Origin: an uncultured bacterium
Lineage (GTDB): Bacteria > Patescibacteriota > Minisyncoccia > Phycocordibacterales > GWA1-40-21
Assembly: GCA_903831305.1 (NCBI GenBank)
Contig: CAIKXE010000008.1
Coordinates: 25,105-89,104, forward strand
DNA length: 64,000 nucleotides
Direction: 5' to 3'
The notes below the pieces were generated by a model that was given only the letters and a program-made list of their open reading frames with translations, searched no databases and was not told the origin of the DNA. Position 1 is the stretch's first letter. The number at the start of each line of letters is the position of its first letter. Made by a program: the position numbers and the translations under genes. This document shows, in pieces, positions 6,134-14,065 of this stretch.

Positions 6134-7837
6134 ATGAAAAAAATACTGAATGATAAAATAATATACGGTGCTTATTTCCGTAAGTCATCTGAATCAGAGG
6201 ATAGGCAAGCTCAATCTATCCCAGATCAAATTAGGGAGGTTGAAACTATTGCGCAAAGAGAAAATATTCAAATTGGTATAAAGTTTCCCGGAGAGTCACA
6301 GTCTGCTTTTACAATTGGAAGACCTATTTTTGCGGATCTTGTAAATAAAATAATGGATCAGGAAATAAACGCAATTGTTGTTTGGCACCCAAACAGACTT
6401 GCGAGAAATCCTGTTGATGCCGGAATGATTCTTTATCTTTTGGATGAGGGTAAATTAAAAGTTATACAAACTCCTAGTAGAGCATATTATAATACTGCGA
6501 GTGATAAATTTATGCTTCAACTTGAGTTTAGTATGTCAAAGAAAGACAGTGACGATAAGAGTGAAGCAGTTATTAGAGGTTTAGAGGGAAGAGCAATTAG
6601 AGGTCTTCCAAGCGGAGTTTCAAAAGTTGGTTTTCTCAATGACACGACAGAAGAAAAAGGAAAAAGAAAATGGAACGTAGATAAAATTCGTTTTCCACTG
6701 GTACAACAACTTCTTAAGAAAATGCTTACTGGAAAATATTCTCCAGCACAAATATACAGATATGCAAAAGACGATTTAAAACTTACAACTACACCTAGAA
6801 AAAAAGTTGGAGGTAAAGCGATATCTTTTTCGTACATTTATTTATTATTAAGAGATCCTATTTATGCAGGTTTTTTCTTTTATGACGAGAAAAGATATGA
6901 ATTAGACGATAGACTTCCACGTGCTATAACCGAAGACGAATATTGGAAAATACAGACAATACTTGGATTAAAAGGAAGACCTCACCCCTCAAAACACGAG
7001 GGAACATATAATGATTTTCTTGTTTGTAAAAAGTGTAATGGACATATGTCACCTGATTTTAAGTTTCAACTTATATGTTCTGTTTGTAGACATAAATTTT
7101 CTTATAGAAACACGGTTGAGTGTCCTAAATGCAAAACAAAAATTGAACAAATGATTGACCCTGTATATTGTTCATATGTATATTATTACTGTATTAACAA
7201 CAAAAAACACCGGACTGTCTGTCAAAATGACGGTATTGAGGAAAAGAAACTTCAACAAGCTCTAGTTCTAAGTCTTAAAGAAAAAGTATCTATTTCTAAA
7301 GATTTATCTAAGTGGTGTATTGATAATATCTACAAACTTAAAGATATTGAACTTAACGAGAAACTATCAATTAAAAACAATCTTGATCAAGAAGAACTGT
7401 CTTTGAAAACGAAATTAAAAAAAATAACTCTAGCTCGTATTTCTCGCGAAGTCTCTTTAGAAGAAGAACAAACTTATATTGAACTTGAAAATGAGATAAG
7501 GGCTGAATTGGTTAGTTTGAATATTCAAAAAGGTAATATGAATGTTGAGTGGTTTTCTGAAGCCTCTAAAGATTTTGATCTTATGTCGGAAATAGTTAAT
7601 GTACTTGAAAATGGAACGACAGAGCAAAAAAAGGAAACTCTGTATGCTTTTGGTTCGAACCTGACAGTTAAAGACAAAATAGTTAGTGTTCACAACAAAA
7701 AATCAATAGAACTCTTTTCAGAGTTCCTAGAACGGGCACAGATAGAAAACAAAGCGTTCGAACCTAGAAATACCCTTGCTACAAAAGAAAAAACAGAGGT
7801 TTTTGCCTCTGTAATTCCTATCCTGCTCCGTGGGTAG
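6134..7837 (+). CDS. Large serine recombinase (serine integrase; resolvase-type catalytic domain, recombinase domain and Zn-ribbon)
   Basis: N-terminus YGAYFRKSSESEDRQAQSIPDQ carries the nucleophilic Ser context. Further support from VVWHPNRLARN and a Cys-rich ribbon CKKCNGH...CSVCRH...CPKCKTK. Size is 567 aa. The last 12 nt, including the TAG stop, overlap the 3' end of tRNA-Asn. Confidence 0.8.
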   Translation: MKKILNDKIIYGAYFRKSSESEDRQAQSIPDQIREVETIAQRENIQIGIKFPGESQSAFTIGRPIFADLVNKIMDQEINAIVVWHPNRLARNPVDAGMILYLLDEGKLKVIQTPSRAYYNTASDKFMLQLEFSMSKKDSDDKSEAVIRGLEGRAIRGLPSGVSKVGFLNDTTEEKGKRKWNVDKIRFPLVQQLLKKMLTGKYSPAQIYRYAKDDLKLTTTPRKKVGGKAISFSYIYLLLRDPIYAGFFFYDEKRYELDDRLPRAITEDEYWKIQTILGLKGRPHPSKHEGTYNDFLVCKKCNGHMSPDFKFQLICSVCRHKFSYRNTVECPKCKTKIEQMIDPVYCSYVYYYCINNKKHRTVCQNDGIEEKKLQQALVLSLKEKVSISKDLSKWCIDNIYKLKDIELNEKLSIKNNLDQEELSLKTKLKKITLARISREVSLEEEQTYIELENEIRAELVSLNIQKGNMNVEWFSEASKDFDLMSEIVNVLENGTTEQKKETLYAFGSNLTVKDKIVSVHNKKSIELFSEFLERAQIENKAFEPRNTLATKEKTEVFASVIPILLRG

Positions 7838-7897
7838 GGATCGAACCTACGACCAATCGCTTAACAGGCGACCGCTCTACCGCTGAGCTACCACGGA
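7826..7897 (-). tRNA. tRNA-Asn (anticodon GTT)
   Basis: Manual fold gives acceptor UCCGUGG/CCACGGA, D-arm GCUC-AGCGGUA-GAGC, anticodon arm GUCGC-CUGUUAA-GCGAU, T-loop UUCGAUC and discriminator G. Confidence 0.85.
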
Positions 7898-7979: not shown

Positions 7980-8717
7980 ATGAAAAAAGAAAATATTAAA
8001 AAGATAGTCAAAGATAAATATAAAGAAATAGCTATCAGTGGTGCTTCATGCGGATGTTCATGCAATAGAGCAAAAAATATTTCAAAAAGTATTGGTTATT
8101 CTGAAGAGGAATTAAAAATAGTTGGTACGGCAAATCTTGGTCTTGGTTGTGGTAATCCGTTAGCTTATGGCAAGATTAAGGAGGGGGATGTGGTTCTGGA
8201 TTTAGGCTCTGGTGCTGGTATAGATTCTATTCTTGCGGCTGAAAAAGTTGGGAGTAAAGGCAAGGTGATCGGAGTGGATATGACTGAAGAAATGATAGAA
8301 AGGGCCAAAGAAAATGCTAAAAAATACAATGTAAAGAATGTAGAATTTCTCTTGGGAGAAATAGAGCATCTTCCTTTAGTGGATAATTCAGTTGATACTA
8401 TAATTACTAATTGTGTTATTAATTTAACGCCAGACAAAGCCAAGACATTTAGTGAAGCATACCGAGTGCTCAAACCAGGGGGAAAGATCTACCTTTCGGA
8501 TATTGTTTTGCTTGAAGACTTATCAAAGGAACAAAGAAATGACAAAGATTTATTATCTGGCTGTGTGGCTGGAGCTTTATTAAAGGAAGACTATCTTAAT
8601 AAAATAGAAAAAGCGGGTTTCGAAGTGAGGATTTTACATGAAAACAAGGAGATTAGTAAAAAGCAATATAATGGAATTGCTCTAGAAAGTATAATGGTTG
8701 AACTGTCTAAAAATTAA
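7980..8717 (+). CDS. SAM-dependent methyltransferase, ArsM-like (arsenite methyltransferase family)
   Basis: SAM-binding motif [11 protein letters not shown], the sequence [12 protein letters not shown], and N-terminal Cys cluster [10 protein letters not shown]. Confidence 0.6.
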
Positions 8718-8734
8718 ATAGACTATATTTTGGT

Positions 8735-8762
8735 TGACAAAATCACTGGATTAGCTAACATA
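8735..8762 (+). promoter_or_regulatory. Sigma70-like promoter TTGACA-16-TAACAT driving the GC-rich unit at 8770-9090
   Basis: Read directly from ttggTTGACAaaatcactggattagcTAACATatag. Confidence 0.4.
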
Positions 8763-8809
8763 TAGTCAGAACCTAGGTCCCTTACAAGAGTGGTGAGATG
8801 GAGGTGCGT

Positions 8810-9025
8810 ATGTCCAAGAAGCACAGAACGCGTAAACGGTGTGGGCGGATCGGCGGAATTGAGCGCCGGGTGTTCTCTTCCTACATGTGGTGCTTTACTA
8901 TGAACACGTGGGTGTTTGTACAGGTGGATGAGGAAAAGGGCAACTGTTGCACCTGCCCAAATTGCCCGTTCAGTCCGGCCTATGTAAGGCCGGAAGTTGA
9001 AACGGACGCCCGGCTTACCGCCTGA
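8810..9025 (+). CDS. Small basic Cys-rich ORF (71 aa, MSKKHRTRKRCGRIGG...CCTCPNCP) inside a GC-rich transcript; could instead be part of a structured ncRNA
   Basis: Strong SD GGAGGTG 4-5 nt before the ATG. The region is ~58% GC against an AT-rich backbone. Flanked by a promoter and a terminator. Confidence 0.3.
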   Translation: MSKKHRTRKRCGRIGGIERRVFSSYMWCFTMNTWVFVQVDEEKGNCCTCPNCPFSPAYVRPEVETDARLTA

Positions 9026-9048
9026 GTACCGCCCGGCCACCGCCGTAC

Positions 9049-9088
9049 AGCCCGCCTGGTTCCTATACCAGCGGGCTCTTTGTTTGTG
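9049..9088 (+). terminator. Intrinsic terminator (AGCCCGCCUGG...CCAGCGGGCU followed by CUUUGUUUGUG)
   Basis: GC-rich hairpin followed by a U-rich tract. Confidence 0.6.
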
Positions 9089-9119
9089 CAAATATTTGAT
9101 GCACGCTATACTTCATGGT

Positions 9120-10127
9120 ATGAGAAATGAAGATTTACTTTTGGATTTGATAAAAATAAACTCTGAATCTGGGAACGAAAAAGAGATAGGGGATTTTATT
9201 TTTAATTTATTAACGGAGAAGGGTTTCCAGGTGGAGAAGCAGATAGTGGATGAGAAGGCCGGAACCTTTAATATCTTTGCATCTGTGGGCAAGCCCAAGG
9301 TGGTATTTAGCAATCATATGGACACGGTGCCACCACAAATAGAAGTAAAAGAAGAAGATGGTAAAATATATGGTCGGGGGGCTTGTGATGCTAAGTCTCA
9401 ATTAGCGGCCGCTTTATGTGCGGCTTTTTTGGCCAGGGAAAAAGATCTGACGGATTTTGGTCTAGCTTACACCATACAAGAAGAATTGGATCTATTAGGG
9501 GCGGAAAAGATCCTGGACATATTGCCGGACGGAGTAGAACTGATTGTAGCGGGGGAACCAACGGAGCTTGAACTGGTTCGGGGTCACAATGGTATTATTT
9601 GTTTTGAACTTTTAGCTCATGGAAAAACAGCTCATGGGGCGCTACCAGAGAAGGGAATAAATGCAATTGAATTACTGATGGAGGATTTAACCGTGATTCG
9701 TAATACAGATTTTGGTGAGGACAAAATTTTGGGCAAAAATATTTTAAATATTGCTCAAATATCTGGTGGTATTGCAGATAATGTGGTGCCCGATGAAGCT
9801 AAAGCTATCATATCTTTTAGAACTGTTTCAGATTTTGAAAAGGTGATTGAAAAATTAAAGTCTGTTGTTAAAGGGGAAGTTAAAATTACTCTAAAATACA
9901 ATCCATTTTTTAATGATAAAGCTGAAGATTTGGCTAAGAAGATTGGAATAAAGACCAAGACCGTCAGATATTTTACCGAGGCGTCTATTTTACGCCAAAA
10001 GGGTAACCCGGTGATTCTTGGCGCGGGGAGCATTAAGGAGGCGCATAGTGCCACTGAATTTGTTTCTATTGCAGAGTATAATAAATTGATTGAGCTTTAT
10101 TTGGAAATTATCAAACAGTATAATTAG
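9120..10127 (+). CDS. M20 family metallopeptidase (ArgE/DapE-type deacylase)
   Basis: Contains FSNHMDTVPP and GRGACDAKSQLAAALCA. Start set at MRNEDLLLDLIK; the ORF track starts at 8997, inside the GC-rich upstream unit. Confidence 0.7.
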   Translation: MRNEDLLLDLIKINSESGNEKEIGDFIFNLLTEKGFQVEKQIVDEKAGTFNIFASVGKPKVVFSNHMDTVPPQIEVKEEDGKIYGRGACDAKSQLAAALCAAFLAREKDLTDFGLAYTIQEELDLLGAEKILDILPDGVELIVAGEPTELELVRGHNGIICFELLAHGKTAHGALPEKGINAIELLMEDLTVIRNTDFGEDKILGKNILNIAQISGGIADNVVPDEAKAIISFRTVSDFEKVIEKLKSVVKGEVKITLKYNPFFNDKAEDLAKKIGIKTKTVRYFTEASILRQKGNPVILGAGSIKEAHSATEFVSIAEYNKLIELYLEIIKQYN

Positions 10128-10262: not shown

Positions 10263-10610
10263 ATGATGAAGATTTGGATGCTCTGGAGTGTGGTTCTCGG
10301 GCTCGTCCTGGCCTCAGTATCTGTGGTGGGGGAAGGACCAGAGACAAATGAAAGGGACTTCTACCTCAGGCTCGTGGGCGGGCCGGTGGTGGAAACCGGA
10401 TCTGGCCTGGTGACAGAGCCGATCCTTGGGCTGTATGCCTTGCTTTTGGGTCAGAACCAAACGTCGGTTCGGCGCCAGCGCGAGCGGTCACGTGATGCTC
10501 TTGGCGGTCCGGACAAGAACCGTCGGCAATCACCGCCATCGCACGAGCTCTCACTCGGCGGGTACGGCCAGTGCCGGCAATCCCAGACCTATGGTCAGTT
10601 TGGTCGTTGA
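10263..10610 (+). CDS. Small secreted/membrane-anchored protein (signal peptide MMKIWMLWSVVLGLVLASVSVVG), GC-rich
   Basis: SD GGAGGA precedes the ATG. Hydrophobic N-terminus. Codons have high GC3, unlike the backbone. Confidence 0.5.
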   Translation: MMKIWMLWSVVLGLVLASVSVVGEGPETNERDFYLRLVGGPVVETGSGLVTEPILGLYALLLGQNQTSVRRQRERSRDALGGPDKNRRQSPPSHELSLGGYGQCRQSQTYGQFGR

Positions 10611-10672: not shown

Positions 10673-10787
10673 TTGTTAAATTTTTAGTATACAAAATAGT
10701 CGTTTGGTGCTAGGCTTTAGCCAGATGCTCTTCGTCACTATTTGTTAGTAAGTGTTGGTAGAAGGAACAAGAAACGGGAGAACGGTC

Positions 10788-11915
10788 ATGAAGATTCTGG
10801 TGATTGCAGACACGCACGACATCCCAGACTGGGTCGTCCGGTGCATCGTCGAACTCGGGCAGAAGTGGGGAGTGGAGCTGGTCATACACTGTGGGGATAT
10901 TATCCCCGAGCATGTCAGCAACGAACTCTTCAGCAATCTGCCGGTCATCTGTGCCATCGTGAAGAATCAGAAGGACGACCCAGTCTTCGGTGTGGACAAG
11001 CCCGTCGGCTGGACTCTGACCCGGTCTGAGGATCGTGTTCGTACACTCACGAATGACATGGTGGTCTACGTGGGGCATCAGCGCCCGCTGGACTACCTCC
11101 GGGCCACGGAGGAGAAGTTCAACGCTATCCTCATGGACCTGCGGCAGACCTTTGACGGCCTGCGCTACGTCTTCGGGGGTCACACCCATTTCCAGGCCTA
11201 CAAGCAAGGACAGTTGGTTACCCTCGTCAATCCCGGTGCCGTCAAGGACGCGATTGGCTGGGGCTACGAGTATGCGCTCGTGGACACGGAAACAGGGAAA
11301 GTCATCTTCAGTCGTGTCCTGCCGACCCCGGATAGCCGTGAGATCTTCACGGTCGGTGTGATCTCGGATACTCTGGATATCACCGAACGTGATGCCAAGT
11401 ATTGGTCCCTGCTTGCTCGTGAGTTGAAGGAGGGGGGAGTGAGCCACCTGATCATTTGTGGCAACATGCACCTTACGGACATCGGTCGGTCCGAGCTTGC
11501 TGGCCTCACCGTCCACTATGCTATCCGGAGTGATCAGTACAGCCGTCATCGGGCTATGCAAGAAGGTGGTGTCATCCCGGCGAACTGGCAGGTGATTGCG
11601 CTTGAGGACCTGGACAAAGGGGCGGTGGTGGACATCAACGGTTACCGCTTCTACGTCCAGCTGGATCTCGGCCTGGAGTACATGCAACTCAGCGAAGTGG
11701 GTATGGACTCCAAGGCTATGGAGATCCGGCGGTTGCACCCCGAGACGGAGTTCGTCCTCTGCGGTTTCACTCGAGATGCCCTTCTGATGGAAGGAGAGCA
11801 GGCCGTCACCATCAACCCTGGGGATACGAACACGGACCGGGCCTACGTGACCATCCAACTGCCGAAGCGCGAGATCACCTTTGATCACGTGCCGGTGGAA
11901 GCTTTGCCACAGTAA
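10788..11915 (+). CDS. Calcineurin-like metallophosphoesterase with tandem MPP domains (second copy degenerate), GC-rich
   Basis: MPP motifs ILVIADTHD, HCGDI and GHTHF. Second repeat is VGVISDTLD...ICGNMH. The long antisense ORF 10710..11888 is the usual high-GC artefact. Confidence 0.7.
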   Translation: MKILVIADTHDIPDWVVRCIVELGQKWGVELVIHCGDIIPEHVSNELFSNLPVICAIVKNQKDDPVFGVDKPVGWTLTRSEDRVRTLTNDMVVYVGHQRPLDYLRATEEKFNAILMDLRQTFDGLRYVFGGHTHFQAYKQGQLVTLVNPGAVKDAIGWGYEYALVDTETGKVIFSRVLPTPDSREIFTVGVISDTLDITERDAKYWSLLARELKEGGVSHLIICGNMHLTDIGRSELAGLTVHYAIRSDQYSRHRAMQEGGVIPANWQVIALEDLDKGAVVDINGYRFYVQLDLGLEYMQLSEVGMDSKAMEIRRLHPETEFVLCGFTRDALLMEGEQAVTINPGDTNTDRAYVTIQLPKREITFDHVPVEALPQ

Positions 11916-12045: not shown

Positions 12046-12534
12046 ATGATTAAGATGAAATATTACAAGCAAAATACTATCATTTCTTGTGGGCCAGTAG
12101 TCCTGCAGATGATTTTTCATTATTATGGTAAATATTTTAGTGAAGAGACTTTGACAAACAAGCTAAGGCCAAACAGTGATGTCGGTACACCACATTATCG
12201 GATGATTAACTTGGCTACTTCTGAAGGATTTTATGTTTATGCTAACGAAGGCTCGTCACTTTATGAGATTGCCTATTTTGTCAATGAAGGTATACCAGTC
12301 ATTGTTCATTTTATCGAGCCAGACACGGAGGATGGTCATTATGCGGTAGTGGTGGGGGTGCAGAAGAAAAATGTAGTATTAAATGATCCCTGGAATGGAG
12401 AAAAGTTTAAAATGGATAAAGCTGAGTTTGAAAAGAGATGGGTCAGTCTAGACGGTAAGCACAAAAGGTGGATTATGGCGGTTTCTGACACGGATGTGCA
12501 TTTTGGTAAGCAATATTTGCCTAATAAAGCCTAA
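12046..12534 (+). CDS. Peptidase C39-like (papain-fold cysteine peptidase) domain protein
   Basis: Catalytic Cys context SCGPVVLQMIFHYYG and a downstream HYAVVVG His. AT-rich codon usage like the backbone. Confidence 0.55.
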   Translation: MIKMKYYKQNTIISCGPVVLQMIFHYYGKYFSEETLTNKLRPNSDVGTPHYRMINLATSEGFYVYANEGSSLYEIAYFVNEGIPVIVHFIEPDTEDGHYAVVVGVQKKNVVLNDPWNGEKFKMDKAEFEKRWVSLDGKHKRWIMAVSDTDVHFGKQYLPNKA

Positions 12535-12679: not shown

Positions 12680-12943
12680 ATGAAGAAAAGTGATCTGTGG
12701 CTGTTGCTGGTGGTTGCACTCGTGGTGGCGGTGTCCTTTGTGGCACTGCACCGGATGCCGATCACACCCGTGGAGCCCAGGAAGTCGCCGATGGAGAAGG
12801 TCTCCCCGGCACCCGTGAAGGATCTGGGTCCGAAGGTCCCCAAGAAGGTCTTGGGTAACCCGAACGAGCCAAGTGTCAGTGTCGCCAACAAAGGGAAGGG
12901 GTATACGGAAGTGCGGACACGGTTGTCCGTCAGTATCGAGTGA
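12680..12943 (+). CDS. Small membrane/secreted protein (87 aa), GC-rich
   Basis: N-terminal TM/signal segment LWLLLVVALVVAVSFVAL; GC-rich codons. Confidence 0.5.
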   Translation: MKKSDLWLLLVVALVVAVSFVALHRMPITPVEPRKSPMEKVSPAPVKDLGPKVPKKVLGNPNEPSVSVANKGKGYTEVRTRLSVSIE

Positions 12944-13003: not shown

Positions 13004-14065
13004 ATGAAGACGAAGATTCTGTCTACGGTTCTCGTGATGTTCGGTCTCGCATCGGCCAACTGGGCGGCATCGGTGGTGGTACCCTCGACGACGGAGCCGG
13101 TGGTTGAGTCCTGGATTCGGCCACTCGTTTCCAAAGCGGTGATGAGGTCATACCTCGTCGAGCGGTCCGTACAAGTGTACGTGGACACATTCGGTGAGGG
13201 AGTGCTGGATCAGAGTGCTGATGGACTTCAGCTCATCGGCAAGGGTGCTGACGAACTCTGTGATTTGGTTGCTGACCAGGTCATCACCTTCAAGGTGGTG
13301 GATGGTCGGGAGGATCAGGTTGGTCAGACCGTCCAGATGTCTGACCAGCTTGGCAACGCGACTTTCCTAGGTTGGAGAGAAGTGCACCTTGACCGAGTCA
13401 ATGGAGGGCTCGTGGTGATGGGTTCTGATGCCATTTCCCTTCAAATGAGTGATAGGGTGATGGTGGAGGTACCGGCGGATATCATCTGGGTCAATGTCTT
13501 GACCCGTGATGAATCTGGCAATGTGGTCGGTGGGTTATATTGCTCCATTTCCAAAATGAATGAGCAGTATTACCTCGAGTTTCCGACCACTGCGTGCGGT
13601 GATTCCTTTGCCCCTGGTTACTACGGTGAACTTACGGCGCAGAGACGGACCAGTGGTGGCGGATATATGACTTCGGTCTATAATCTGTCCACTGGTGAGG
13701 AGTTGCCCAGCACAGACGTCAGCATGGTTATCTCACCGTCGATTGAGGGGGTTAAGGTGCTCGCCGTAGACTCGGATATCATCGAGATCCTACCGAGCAC
13801 TGGTGGAGTTGGTATGAACACCACGTTCATCCTGACTGTAACCAAAAAGATGGAAGTCATCACTAAAGCCAAAACCTCGGAAGGGGAATTGGCAGTCGGG
13901 TGCTTCATCAAGGCAGTGCTGGGCGAGGCGGGCTCCGCTTACGTCTCATCACCGTCAGTGACTCTTCTCCCTGGCAAGTATCATATCCAGTTCGCTTGGA
14001 GTAAGTTCCACGAACTGGGTGAGCGTGCCGAGGGGTGGGATTACTACGACAACGGCAAGGGCTGA
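13004..14065 (+). CDS. Secreted protein of unknown function (353 aa, signal peptide MKTKILSTVLVMFGLASANWAA), GC-rich
   Basis: SD AGAGGAG precedes the ATG. Signal peptide. High GC3. Confidence 0.55.
   Translation: MKTKILSTVLVMFGLASANWAASVVVPSTTEPVVESWIRPLVSKAVMRSYLVERSVQVYVDTFGEGVLDQSADGLQLIGKGADELCDLVADQVITFKVVDGREDQVGQTVQMSDQLGNATFLGWREVHLDRVNGGLVVMGSDAISLQMSDRVMVEVPADIIWVNVLTRDESGNVVGGLYCSISKMNEQYYLEFPTTACGDSFAPGYYGELTAQRRTSGGGYMTSVYNLSTGEELPSTDVSMVISPSIEGVKVLAVDSDIIEILPSTGGVGMNTTFILTVTKKMEVITKAKTSEGELAVGCFIKAVLGEAGSAYVSSPSVTLLPGKYHIQFAWSKFHELGERAEGWDYYDNGKG

Follow-up and report, generated by a model that had tools for sequence, protein, structure and literature searches.

We wanted to know what is made from the GC-rich unit at 8734-9087 of the window (the whole 64,000-nucleotide stretch of DNA analysed here), a small protein or a structured RNA. 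A sequence-only reading had described a promoter and a strong terminator bracketing either a small basic Cys-rich protein, possibly metal-binding or RiPP-like, or a novel structured ncRNA. The comparisons presented below point with high confidence to a protein-coding gene, and the segment is very probably a monocistronic protein-coding cassette in which a promoter and a 42-nt leader with a strong SD precede an ORF of 71 codons and an intrinsic terminator. Its features, and the first one of the downstream gene, are as follows.

8734-8761, + strand: sigma-70-type promoter, with TTGACA at 8734-8739, a 16-nt spacer and TAACAT at 8756-8761
8768-8809, + strand: 5' UTR of about 42 nt, with a putative transcription start near 8768 and the SD GGAGGT at 8800-8805
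8810-9025, + strand: predicted CDS of a 71-aa basic Cys-rich protein (MSKKHRTRKRCGR...TDARLTA), with the stop TGA at 9023-9025, called from orthologue selection, frame test and profile
9050-9087, + strand: intrinsic terminator, with a hairpin at 9050-9076 (one bulged C) and the T-tract UCUUUGUUUGU at 9077-9087
9107-9112, + strand: -10 box TATACT of the M20 peptidase gene, 7 nt before its ATG at 9120 and outside the small unit (entry 9107-9122)

Layout of the unit and selection on its ORF

The promoter described earlier, TTGACA-16-TAACAT, is present and matches the consensus at 10 of 12 bases. Promoter-like sites overall were no commoner than in shuffled sequences (6 found, 5.9 expected), and the call carries weight only because the TTGACA box and a -10 are kept in the orthologous units of three related loci, L012, L007 and L010. 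A TTGACA promoter also precedes the paralogues presented below. The GGAGGT ends 4 nt upstream of the ATG at 8810, and the ORF behind it encodes the 71-aa peptide that had been quoted. Sequestration of the SD by the 5' UTR was considered and rejected, because the predicted fold of this region is no better than that of shuffles (z +0.7). The terminator is as strong as had been claimed: hairpin and T-tract together reach -21.3 kcal/mol (z = -4.4 against shuffles), and the helix is shared with L012, L007, L010 and a gene remnant in L014. A simple scanner had overlooked it because of the one-base bulge. The segment was also rightly called GC-rich, although the figure of about 58% was too high, measurement giving 54.5% for 8735-9088 and 56.7% for the presumed transcript at 8768-9088. 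The upstream methyltransferase gene is at 34% and the downstream M20 peptidase gene at 39%, in a window that is AT-rich with GC-rich patches (40.5% overall).

Codon alignments were made from the four intact ORFs (window, L012, L007 and L010). Between the window and L012, differences at the three codon positions numbered 21, 18 and 37 (dN/dS 0.22), and between L007 and L010 they numbered 10, 14 and 32 (dN/dS 0.11). The indels that separate the orthologous ORFs are multiples of three, and the frame is kept. When all six frames were tested, +0 was the only one to be both stop-free and low in pN/pS (0.42 and 0.26). The Ka/Ks comparison, proposed beforehand as a way to decide between coding and RNA, thus came out as coding. 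These patterns show that the ORF behaves as a translated sequence under purifying selection. A 122-aa ORF on the opposite strand (8723-9091) was discarded as an artefact; its pN/pS values are 1.13 and 1.97, and its frame is interrupted in L007.

A family of Cys4 small proteins and its predicted structure

A word-index protein search with the 71-aa peptide alone returned nothing but the peptide itself, because few assemblies call such ORFs. The same kind of search with a two-sequence alignment added the L007 and L010 proteins. A profile built from three database proteins (P0001-P0003) was then run exhaustively against 1.84 billion cluster representatives, and 30 proteins were obtained at E <= 1e-3, with 5 at E <= 1e-10. 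Beyond the window protein and two orthologues, 28 of the retrieved proteins had E-values from 1.6e-14 to 4e-4. Members are 53-77 aa long, except for one over-call of 113 aa, and follow the consensus M.KKKCG..GRIERR...G.I.CH...R.V.I.V...GN.C.D..CP.S with a Cys spacing of C-x16-C-x18-C-x4-C. Five positions (C11, C28, C47, I17 and V35 in window numbering) are present in 30/30 members, and three others in nearly as many or fewer (C52 in 29/30, N45 in 26/30 and G44 in 23/30), all of them found in the window protein. A His directly follows C28 in 19 of the 30. The family has a poly-Lys/Arg N-terminus, a median pI of 9.6 and a median net charge of +6.7, and the sequence of its C-terminal tails past CP[FY]S differs widely between members. 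Against the HMM of the family alignment (A7), in which it is itself included, the window protein reaches 82.9 bits. The small basic Cys-rich protein of the sequence-only reading is thus borne out, by a conserved ORF, by purifying selection in the orthologues and by membership of a family of about 30 Cys4 proteins.

In their source databases, the members are unnamed or labelled 'hypothetical protein'. Pfam, NCBIfam, PHROGs and PADLOC gave nothing but stray sub-threshold matches for the four orthologues and all 30 members; single members had stray matches to zinc-finger models at E 0.01-0.2. No match was obtained at E <= 10 in a sequence profile search of the PDB, nor when a typical member was compared by tblastn with 50,697 phage records. 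A metagenome scan with over-specific patterns found nothing, and a degenerate DNA pattern (GN.C....C..[S]PAY..P) hit 8 metagenome and 2 viral loci, all by chance, with stops or unrelated frames. The literature on small, cysteine-rich or zinc-ribbon proteins of CPR and Saccharibacteria yielded nothing relevant. For one member, the NCBI label of a neighbouring protein on the contig is Candidatus Paceibacterota, which places the family in at least two CPR lineages (Saccharibacteria-like and Paceibacterota contigs). As far as sampled, the family is restricted to CPR. Judged by its profile, the predicted 71-residue protein belongs to an undescribed, uncurated small-protein family of CPR/Patescibacteria.

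An AF2 model made from three sequences was poor (pLDDT 49). With 30 sequences, pLDDT rose to 74 overall and to 82-90 over residues 11-50, and the model has a helix at 14-19 and strands at 24-28, 33-40 and 44-47. Since the four Cys are invariant and the protein is a cytoplasmic one of about 55 aa without a signal peptide, a structural metal site, probably of zinc, is the simplest interpretation. The metal binding suggested in the sequence-only reading is therefore plausible. We find it reasonably likely that a single metal ion, most probably Zn2+, is coordinated by the four Cys, and that this site would staple the short helix to the three-stranded sheet. Counting against a zinc-ribbon type, there is a single C-x4-C pair, the other two Cys being isolated, and CxxC knuckles are absent; Pfam zinc-ribbon models gave no significant match, and no significant fold match was obtained. 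With its Lys/Arg-rich N-terminus and a net charge near +7, the protein looks suited to nucleic-acid binding. We tentatively propose that the basic N-terminal arm and surface might bind nucleic acid (RNA, ribosome or DNA) and that the protein might act as a small regulatory or structural factor. Neither fold nor sequence comparison gave a match to a characterised nucleic-acid-binding protein.

Relatives of the locus and rival explanations

A look-up with the methyltransferase found the identical sequence in several metagenome assemblies, in which the intergenic region is 100% identical, so these assemblies are uninformative on conservation. Among the public assemblies of this same sequence that were examined, the small gene is called in one only (L003, protein P0001), and the L001 assembly, which was inspected most closely, leaves the interval unannotated. 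A genome scan with the M20 peptidase led to L007, a Candidatus Saccharibacteria MAG with an M20 81% identical and, upstream of it, a homologous cassette whose 67-codon ORF ends in FSPAYVKP..TDARLTA*. Intact cassettes are also found in L012 (M20 89% identical) and L010 (78%); in all three loci the cassette comprises promoter, SD, ORF and terminator and lies upstream of M20. The L010 orthologue ends in an unrelated acidic C-terminal tail. In L014 (M20 75%), the 3' third of the ORF and the terminator are all that is left: this 5'-deleted remnant at 895-990 (..CADTECQFSPAYMKP..) lacks promoter and start codon and keeps its terminator, which is direct evidence of gene loss in a close relative. No cassette was found upstream of M20 in L013 (M20 78%) or in L015 and L016 (62%).

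A six-frame HMM search of the fetched loci detected paralogues at 3537-3719 of L007, 932-1129 of L013 and 2743-2919 of L014; the window holds a single copy of the family. Each paralogue has its own TTGACA promoter and a leader of 50-70 nt, in some cases with hairpins. Downstream, a hairpin with a T-tract follows the L013 copy, and weak hairpins only follow those of L007 and L014. In L013, the gene caller had placed an 87-aa ORF on the strand opposite the paralogue. Distant members sit in unrelated neighbourhoods (e.g., PBP-MurF-SWEET, TspO with Peptidase_U32, a two-component system, SWIB) behind what is typically an upstream spacer of 100-400 nt and an SD, with a hairpin and T-tract terminator at most loci; the family gene is usually stand-alone with its own terminator. 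At equal dS, the dN of the small protein is 5.6x that of M20 between the window and L012 and 3x between L007 and L010. The unrelated tail in L010 and the loss of the 5' part in L014 imply that the protein is dispensable. Altogether, these results show that the family is multi-copy in this Saccharibacteria-like clade, that its copies come and go from one close relative to another, and that the gene is an independent, dispensable, fast-evolving cassette.

Such turnover also bears on a different function, in which the Cys4 mini-proteins would be CPR-specific, fast-evolving, multi-copy conflict or host-interaction factors and not housekeeping nucleic-acid binders. Each copy would then sit in its own strongly expressed cassette within an accessory cluster of mosaic GC3 that holds M20, a putatively secreted 115-aa protein, Metallophos_2, C39 and unknowns of 87 and 353 aa. 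The proteins could be, for example, effectors directed at an actinobacterial host, since cultivated Saccharibacteria live on Actinobacteria, or else anti-defence proteins, or peptide precursors that the C39 protease nearby would mature. The data compatible with this role are a dN 3-5.6x that of the neighbour, copies that are present, absent or reduced to remnants among relatives whose M20 is 75-89% identical, the paralogues, and the lack of a match to any known family. We consider this role unlikely.

The surroundings of the gene have several features of their own. By Pfam, the neighbours in the window are a methyltransferase, M20, Metallophos_2, a stand-alone C39 and unknowns. The last two categories meet in an accessory cluster, kept in L002, L003 and L014, in which a stand-alone 162-aa Peptidase_C39-family protein (12046-12534) is flanked by three GC-rich ORFs without Pfam match (10263-10610, 12680-12943 and 13004-14065). 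One of these ORFs has a signal-peptide-like N-terminus. The Metallophos_2 gene at 10788-11915 (+) (E = 7.6e-20) is called in L002 and L003; L001 has instead a 392-aa antisense ORF at 10710-11888 (-), which overlaps it fully and has no Pfam match, and this call is probably a mis-annotation. On the other side of the unit, a large serine recombinase ORF at 6134-7837 (+) runs 13 nt into the 3' end of a tRNA-Asn(GTT) at 7825-7897 (-), and farther upstream, toward position 1, L001 calls an MmeI-type restriction-modification enzyme and an SNF2/PLD protein; the region looks like an element integrated at tRNA-Asn. In L012 and L010 the small-gene cassette directly adjoins the same tRNA-Asn, so the methyltransferase gene at 7980-8717 looks inserted in the window lineage. 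In L010, a GC-rich stretch of about 200 nt (100-290) between tRNA-Asn and the cassette promoter repeats tRNA 5'-end strings ('ccgctgagc...ccacggaat') around a hairpin-like insert. ARAGORN and Rfam returned nothing on it; possible origins are a degenerate copy of the tRNA or the scar of an attachment site.

The presence of a C39 peptidase 3 kb downstream raises the possibility of a RiPP or bacteriocin precursor, with a conserved N-terminal leader of about 50 residues and a variable C-terminal core, that would be cleaved by this enzyme. The family is multi-copy in the clade and has variable tails past CP[FY]S, the C39 gene belongs to the same cluster in the window, L002, L003 and L014, and the window peptide has RIGG at residues 13-16. 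However, this GG is unconserved, being aligned with VWAI in L012 and ETRI in L007, and RIGG is not conserved across the family either. The tail SPAYV.P...DARLTA is conserved within the orthologues, and the conserved part resembles in the AF2 model a folded Cys4 domain, not an amphipathic leader. No radical SAM, YcaO or LanB/C/M-type enzyme and no ABC exporter lies within about 5 kb, RiPP enzymes and an ABC transporter were likewise found neither near the window gene nor in six distant contexts, and no C39 gene was seen within 4 kb of any distant member examined. The RiPP-like character suggested at first is therefore not retained, there being no modifying enzymes nearby, no conserved cleavage motif and a 50-residue core that is conserved as a whole; we hold such a precursor to be quite improbable.

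The composition of the gene is also unusual. The small ORF has a GC3 of 0.60-0.67 in all four orthologues, and M20, C39 and methyltransferase genes are at 0.26-0.38 (0.26-0.35 for the flanking methyltransferase and M20). Other GC3-rich cluster genes recur in several lineages (Metallophos_2 0.74, 115-aa 0.66, 87-aa 0.76 and 353-aa 0.63). Along the window, high-GC3 genes (0.63-0.76 range) at 8810-9025, 10263-10610, 10788-11915, 12680-12943 and 13004-14065 are interleaved with low-GC3 genes (0.26-0.38) at 7980-8717, 9120-10127 and 12046-12534. The mosaic is the same in the L007, L013 and L014 orthologues despite saturated inter-lineage dS, and its persistence indicates that it is maintained gene by gene and is not a decaying signature of horizontal transfer. 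The high GC3 of the small ORF could reflect a constraint at the nucleic-acid level.

This last point touches on a structured ncRNA, or a dual-function RNA with an incidental ORF. The segment stands at 55-57% GC between flanks of 34-39%, its + strand folds with a z-score of -2.5, its high GC3 is kept across lineages, and a local CCGGC...GCCGG hairpin recurs in each of the four orthologues as well as in the L014 remnant. The arms of that hairpin are, however, Pro-Ala and x-Pro codons, in a gene that mostly encodes Pro by CCG, and distant members of the family have an ordinary AT-rich composition (GC3 0.29-0.36). Rfam cmscan was run, as had been advised. At gathering scores it detected six tRNAs only in the whole window, and at E <= 10 the 8600-9250 interval had no RNase P, tmRNA, SRP, T-box or riboswitch match, the best being purD at 16.5 bits (gathering score 41, E = 2.1). 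Over the unit in the orthologous loci, nothing was obtained at E <= 0.01. The statement that the unit does not fit RNase P, tmRNA or SRP RNA was therefore correct. As for the RNase-P-like snippets noticed in it, the strings do exist, but they lie within the coding region, as codons for FSPAYVRP and TDARLTA. We also ran RNAalifold on the homologues: for four units, a number of sequences that limits statistical power, the covariation term was -2.4 of -53.9 kcal/mol, and helices other than the terminator were weak or invariant, leaving the terminator helix as the only robust one. Finally, the dS of the small ORF is 1.5-1.8, against 0.9-1.5 for the adjacent M20 gene, so that its synonymous divergence is saturated, equal to that of its neighbour. 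Since it is not below that of M20, silent sites appear free of the added constraint that an embedded RNA structure would impose. Together with the codon-periodic substitutions and dN/dS of 0.11-0.22, these data make an RNA product highly improbable.

Returning to the protein-coding cassette, its position relative to M20 also had to be considered. The window, L012, L007 and L010 share one layout, in which the promoter is followed by the small ORF, the terminator and, 35-60 nt later, M20, whose gene has no SD. This would suit a leader peptide or attenuator, with read-through past the terminator into M20 set by translation of the small ORF. Yet a TATACT/TATAAT box lies 6-10 nt before the M20 ATG in L012 (~634-648), L007 (~1592-1616), L010 (~716-734), L014 and the cassette-less L013 (~2489-2503). 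The M20 mRNA is probably leaderless or nearly so, as judged from this -10 box just before the ATG and from the missing SD. The box is thus kept both next to a cassette or remnant and in L013 without the unit, which argues against attenuation. In addition, M20 orthologues of 62% identity lack the unit, and the genes that follow family members and paralogues are unrelated or lie on the opposite strand. The terminator stem begins 25 nt after the ORF ends, neither an antiterminator alternative nor a run of regulatory codons is present, and selection acts on the whole 50-residue core. Attenuation is extremely improbable, and the link between the small gene and M20 is synteny within one narrow clade, not functional coupling.

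That the ORF arose by chance in a GC-rich remnant of foreign DNA, without any gene product, would agree with the long frames that such DNA has on both strands (e.g., the 122-aa antisense ORF), with the call in one public assembly only and with an initial protein search that returned the query alone, but it is already contradicted by a frame that four lineages have kept, with purifying selection, at a dS of more than 1.5, the family of 30 representatives and the conserved promoter, SD and terminator, and its probability is practically nil.

Significance and comparison with known systems

CPR/Patescibacteria genomes are small, with a large share of genes without assigned function, and small ORFs are systematically under-called. 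With the evidence for a selected protein, annotation gains a concrete new model, and for work on cultivable Saccharibacteria the gene offers a small, tractable candidate regulatory or host-interaction factor. The family is useful for annotation and moderately interesting; it is not surprising and opens no long-standing question.

Among known systems, the trpL and hisL attenuators resemble the unit in having a promoter, a short ORF, an intrinsic terminator and a downstream enzyme gene. In contrast to these, the ORF here has 3-5 times their length, is kept as a protein family across unrelated contexts and lacks both regulatory codon runs and alternative hairpins, and the downstream M20 gene has its own -10 box. 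The RiPP precursors of the NHLP/Nif11 type share with the family multi-copy small genes, a conserved N-terminal part, a variable tail and a C39 in the cluster. Unlike them, the family is devoid of a double-glycine site, modifying enzymes and transporter, the distant members examined have no C39 nearby, and the Cys4 signature in its conserved part is that of a folded domain.

WhiB-like (Wbl) proteins are alike in their small size, four invariant Cys, basic region and several paralogues per genome. Found in Actinobacteria and actinophages, they are helical, bind a [4Fe-4S] cluster through C-x(14-22)-C-x2-C-x5-C and have a G[VI]WGG turn. Neither this Cys pattern nor this turn is seen in the family, which has no Pfam Whib match and a core predicted to be beta-rich. 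The remaining comparison is with the small Cys4 zinc-ribbon and zinc-finger mini-proteins, such as RNA polymerase subunit P/Rpb12-like proteins, bL36 and the haloarchaeal CPxCG proteins. The family differs from these by its C-x16-C-x18-C-x4-C spacing without CxxC knuckles and without Pfam, NCBIfam or PDB match. It is like them in its 50-75 aa, four Cys, basic character and beta-rich core, and like them it consists of stand-alone, presumably highly expressed genes, with a structural metal site presumed to serve nucleic-acid binding.
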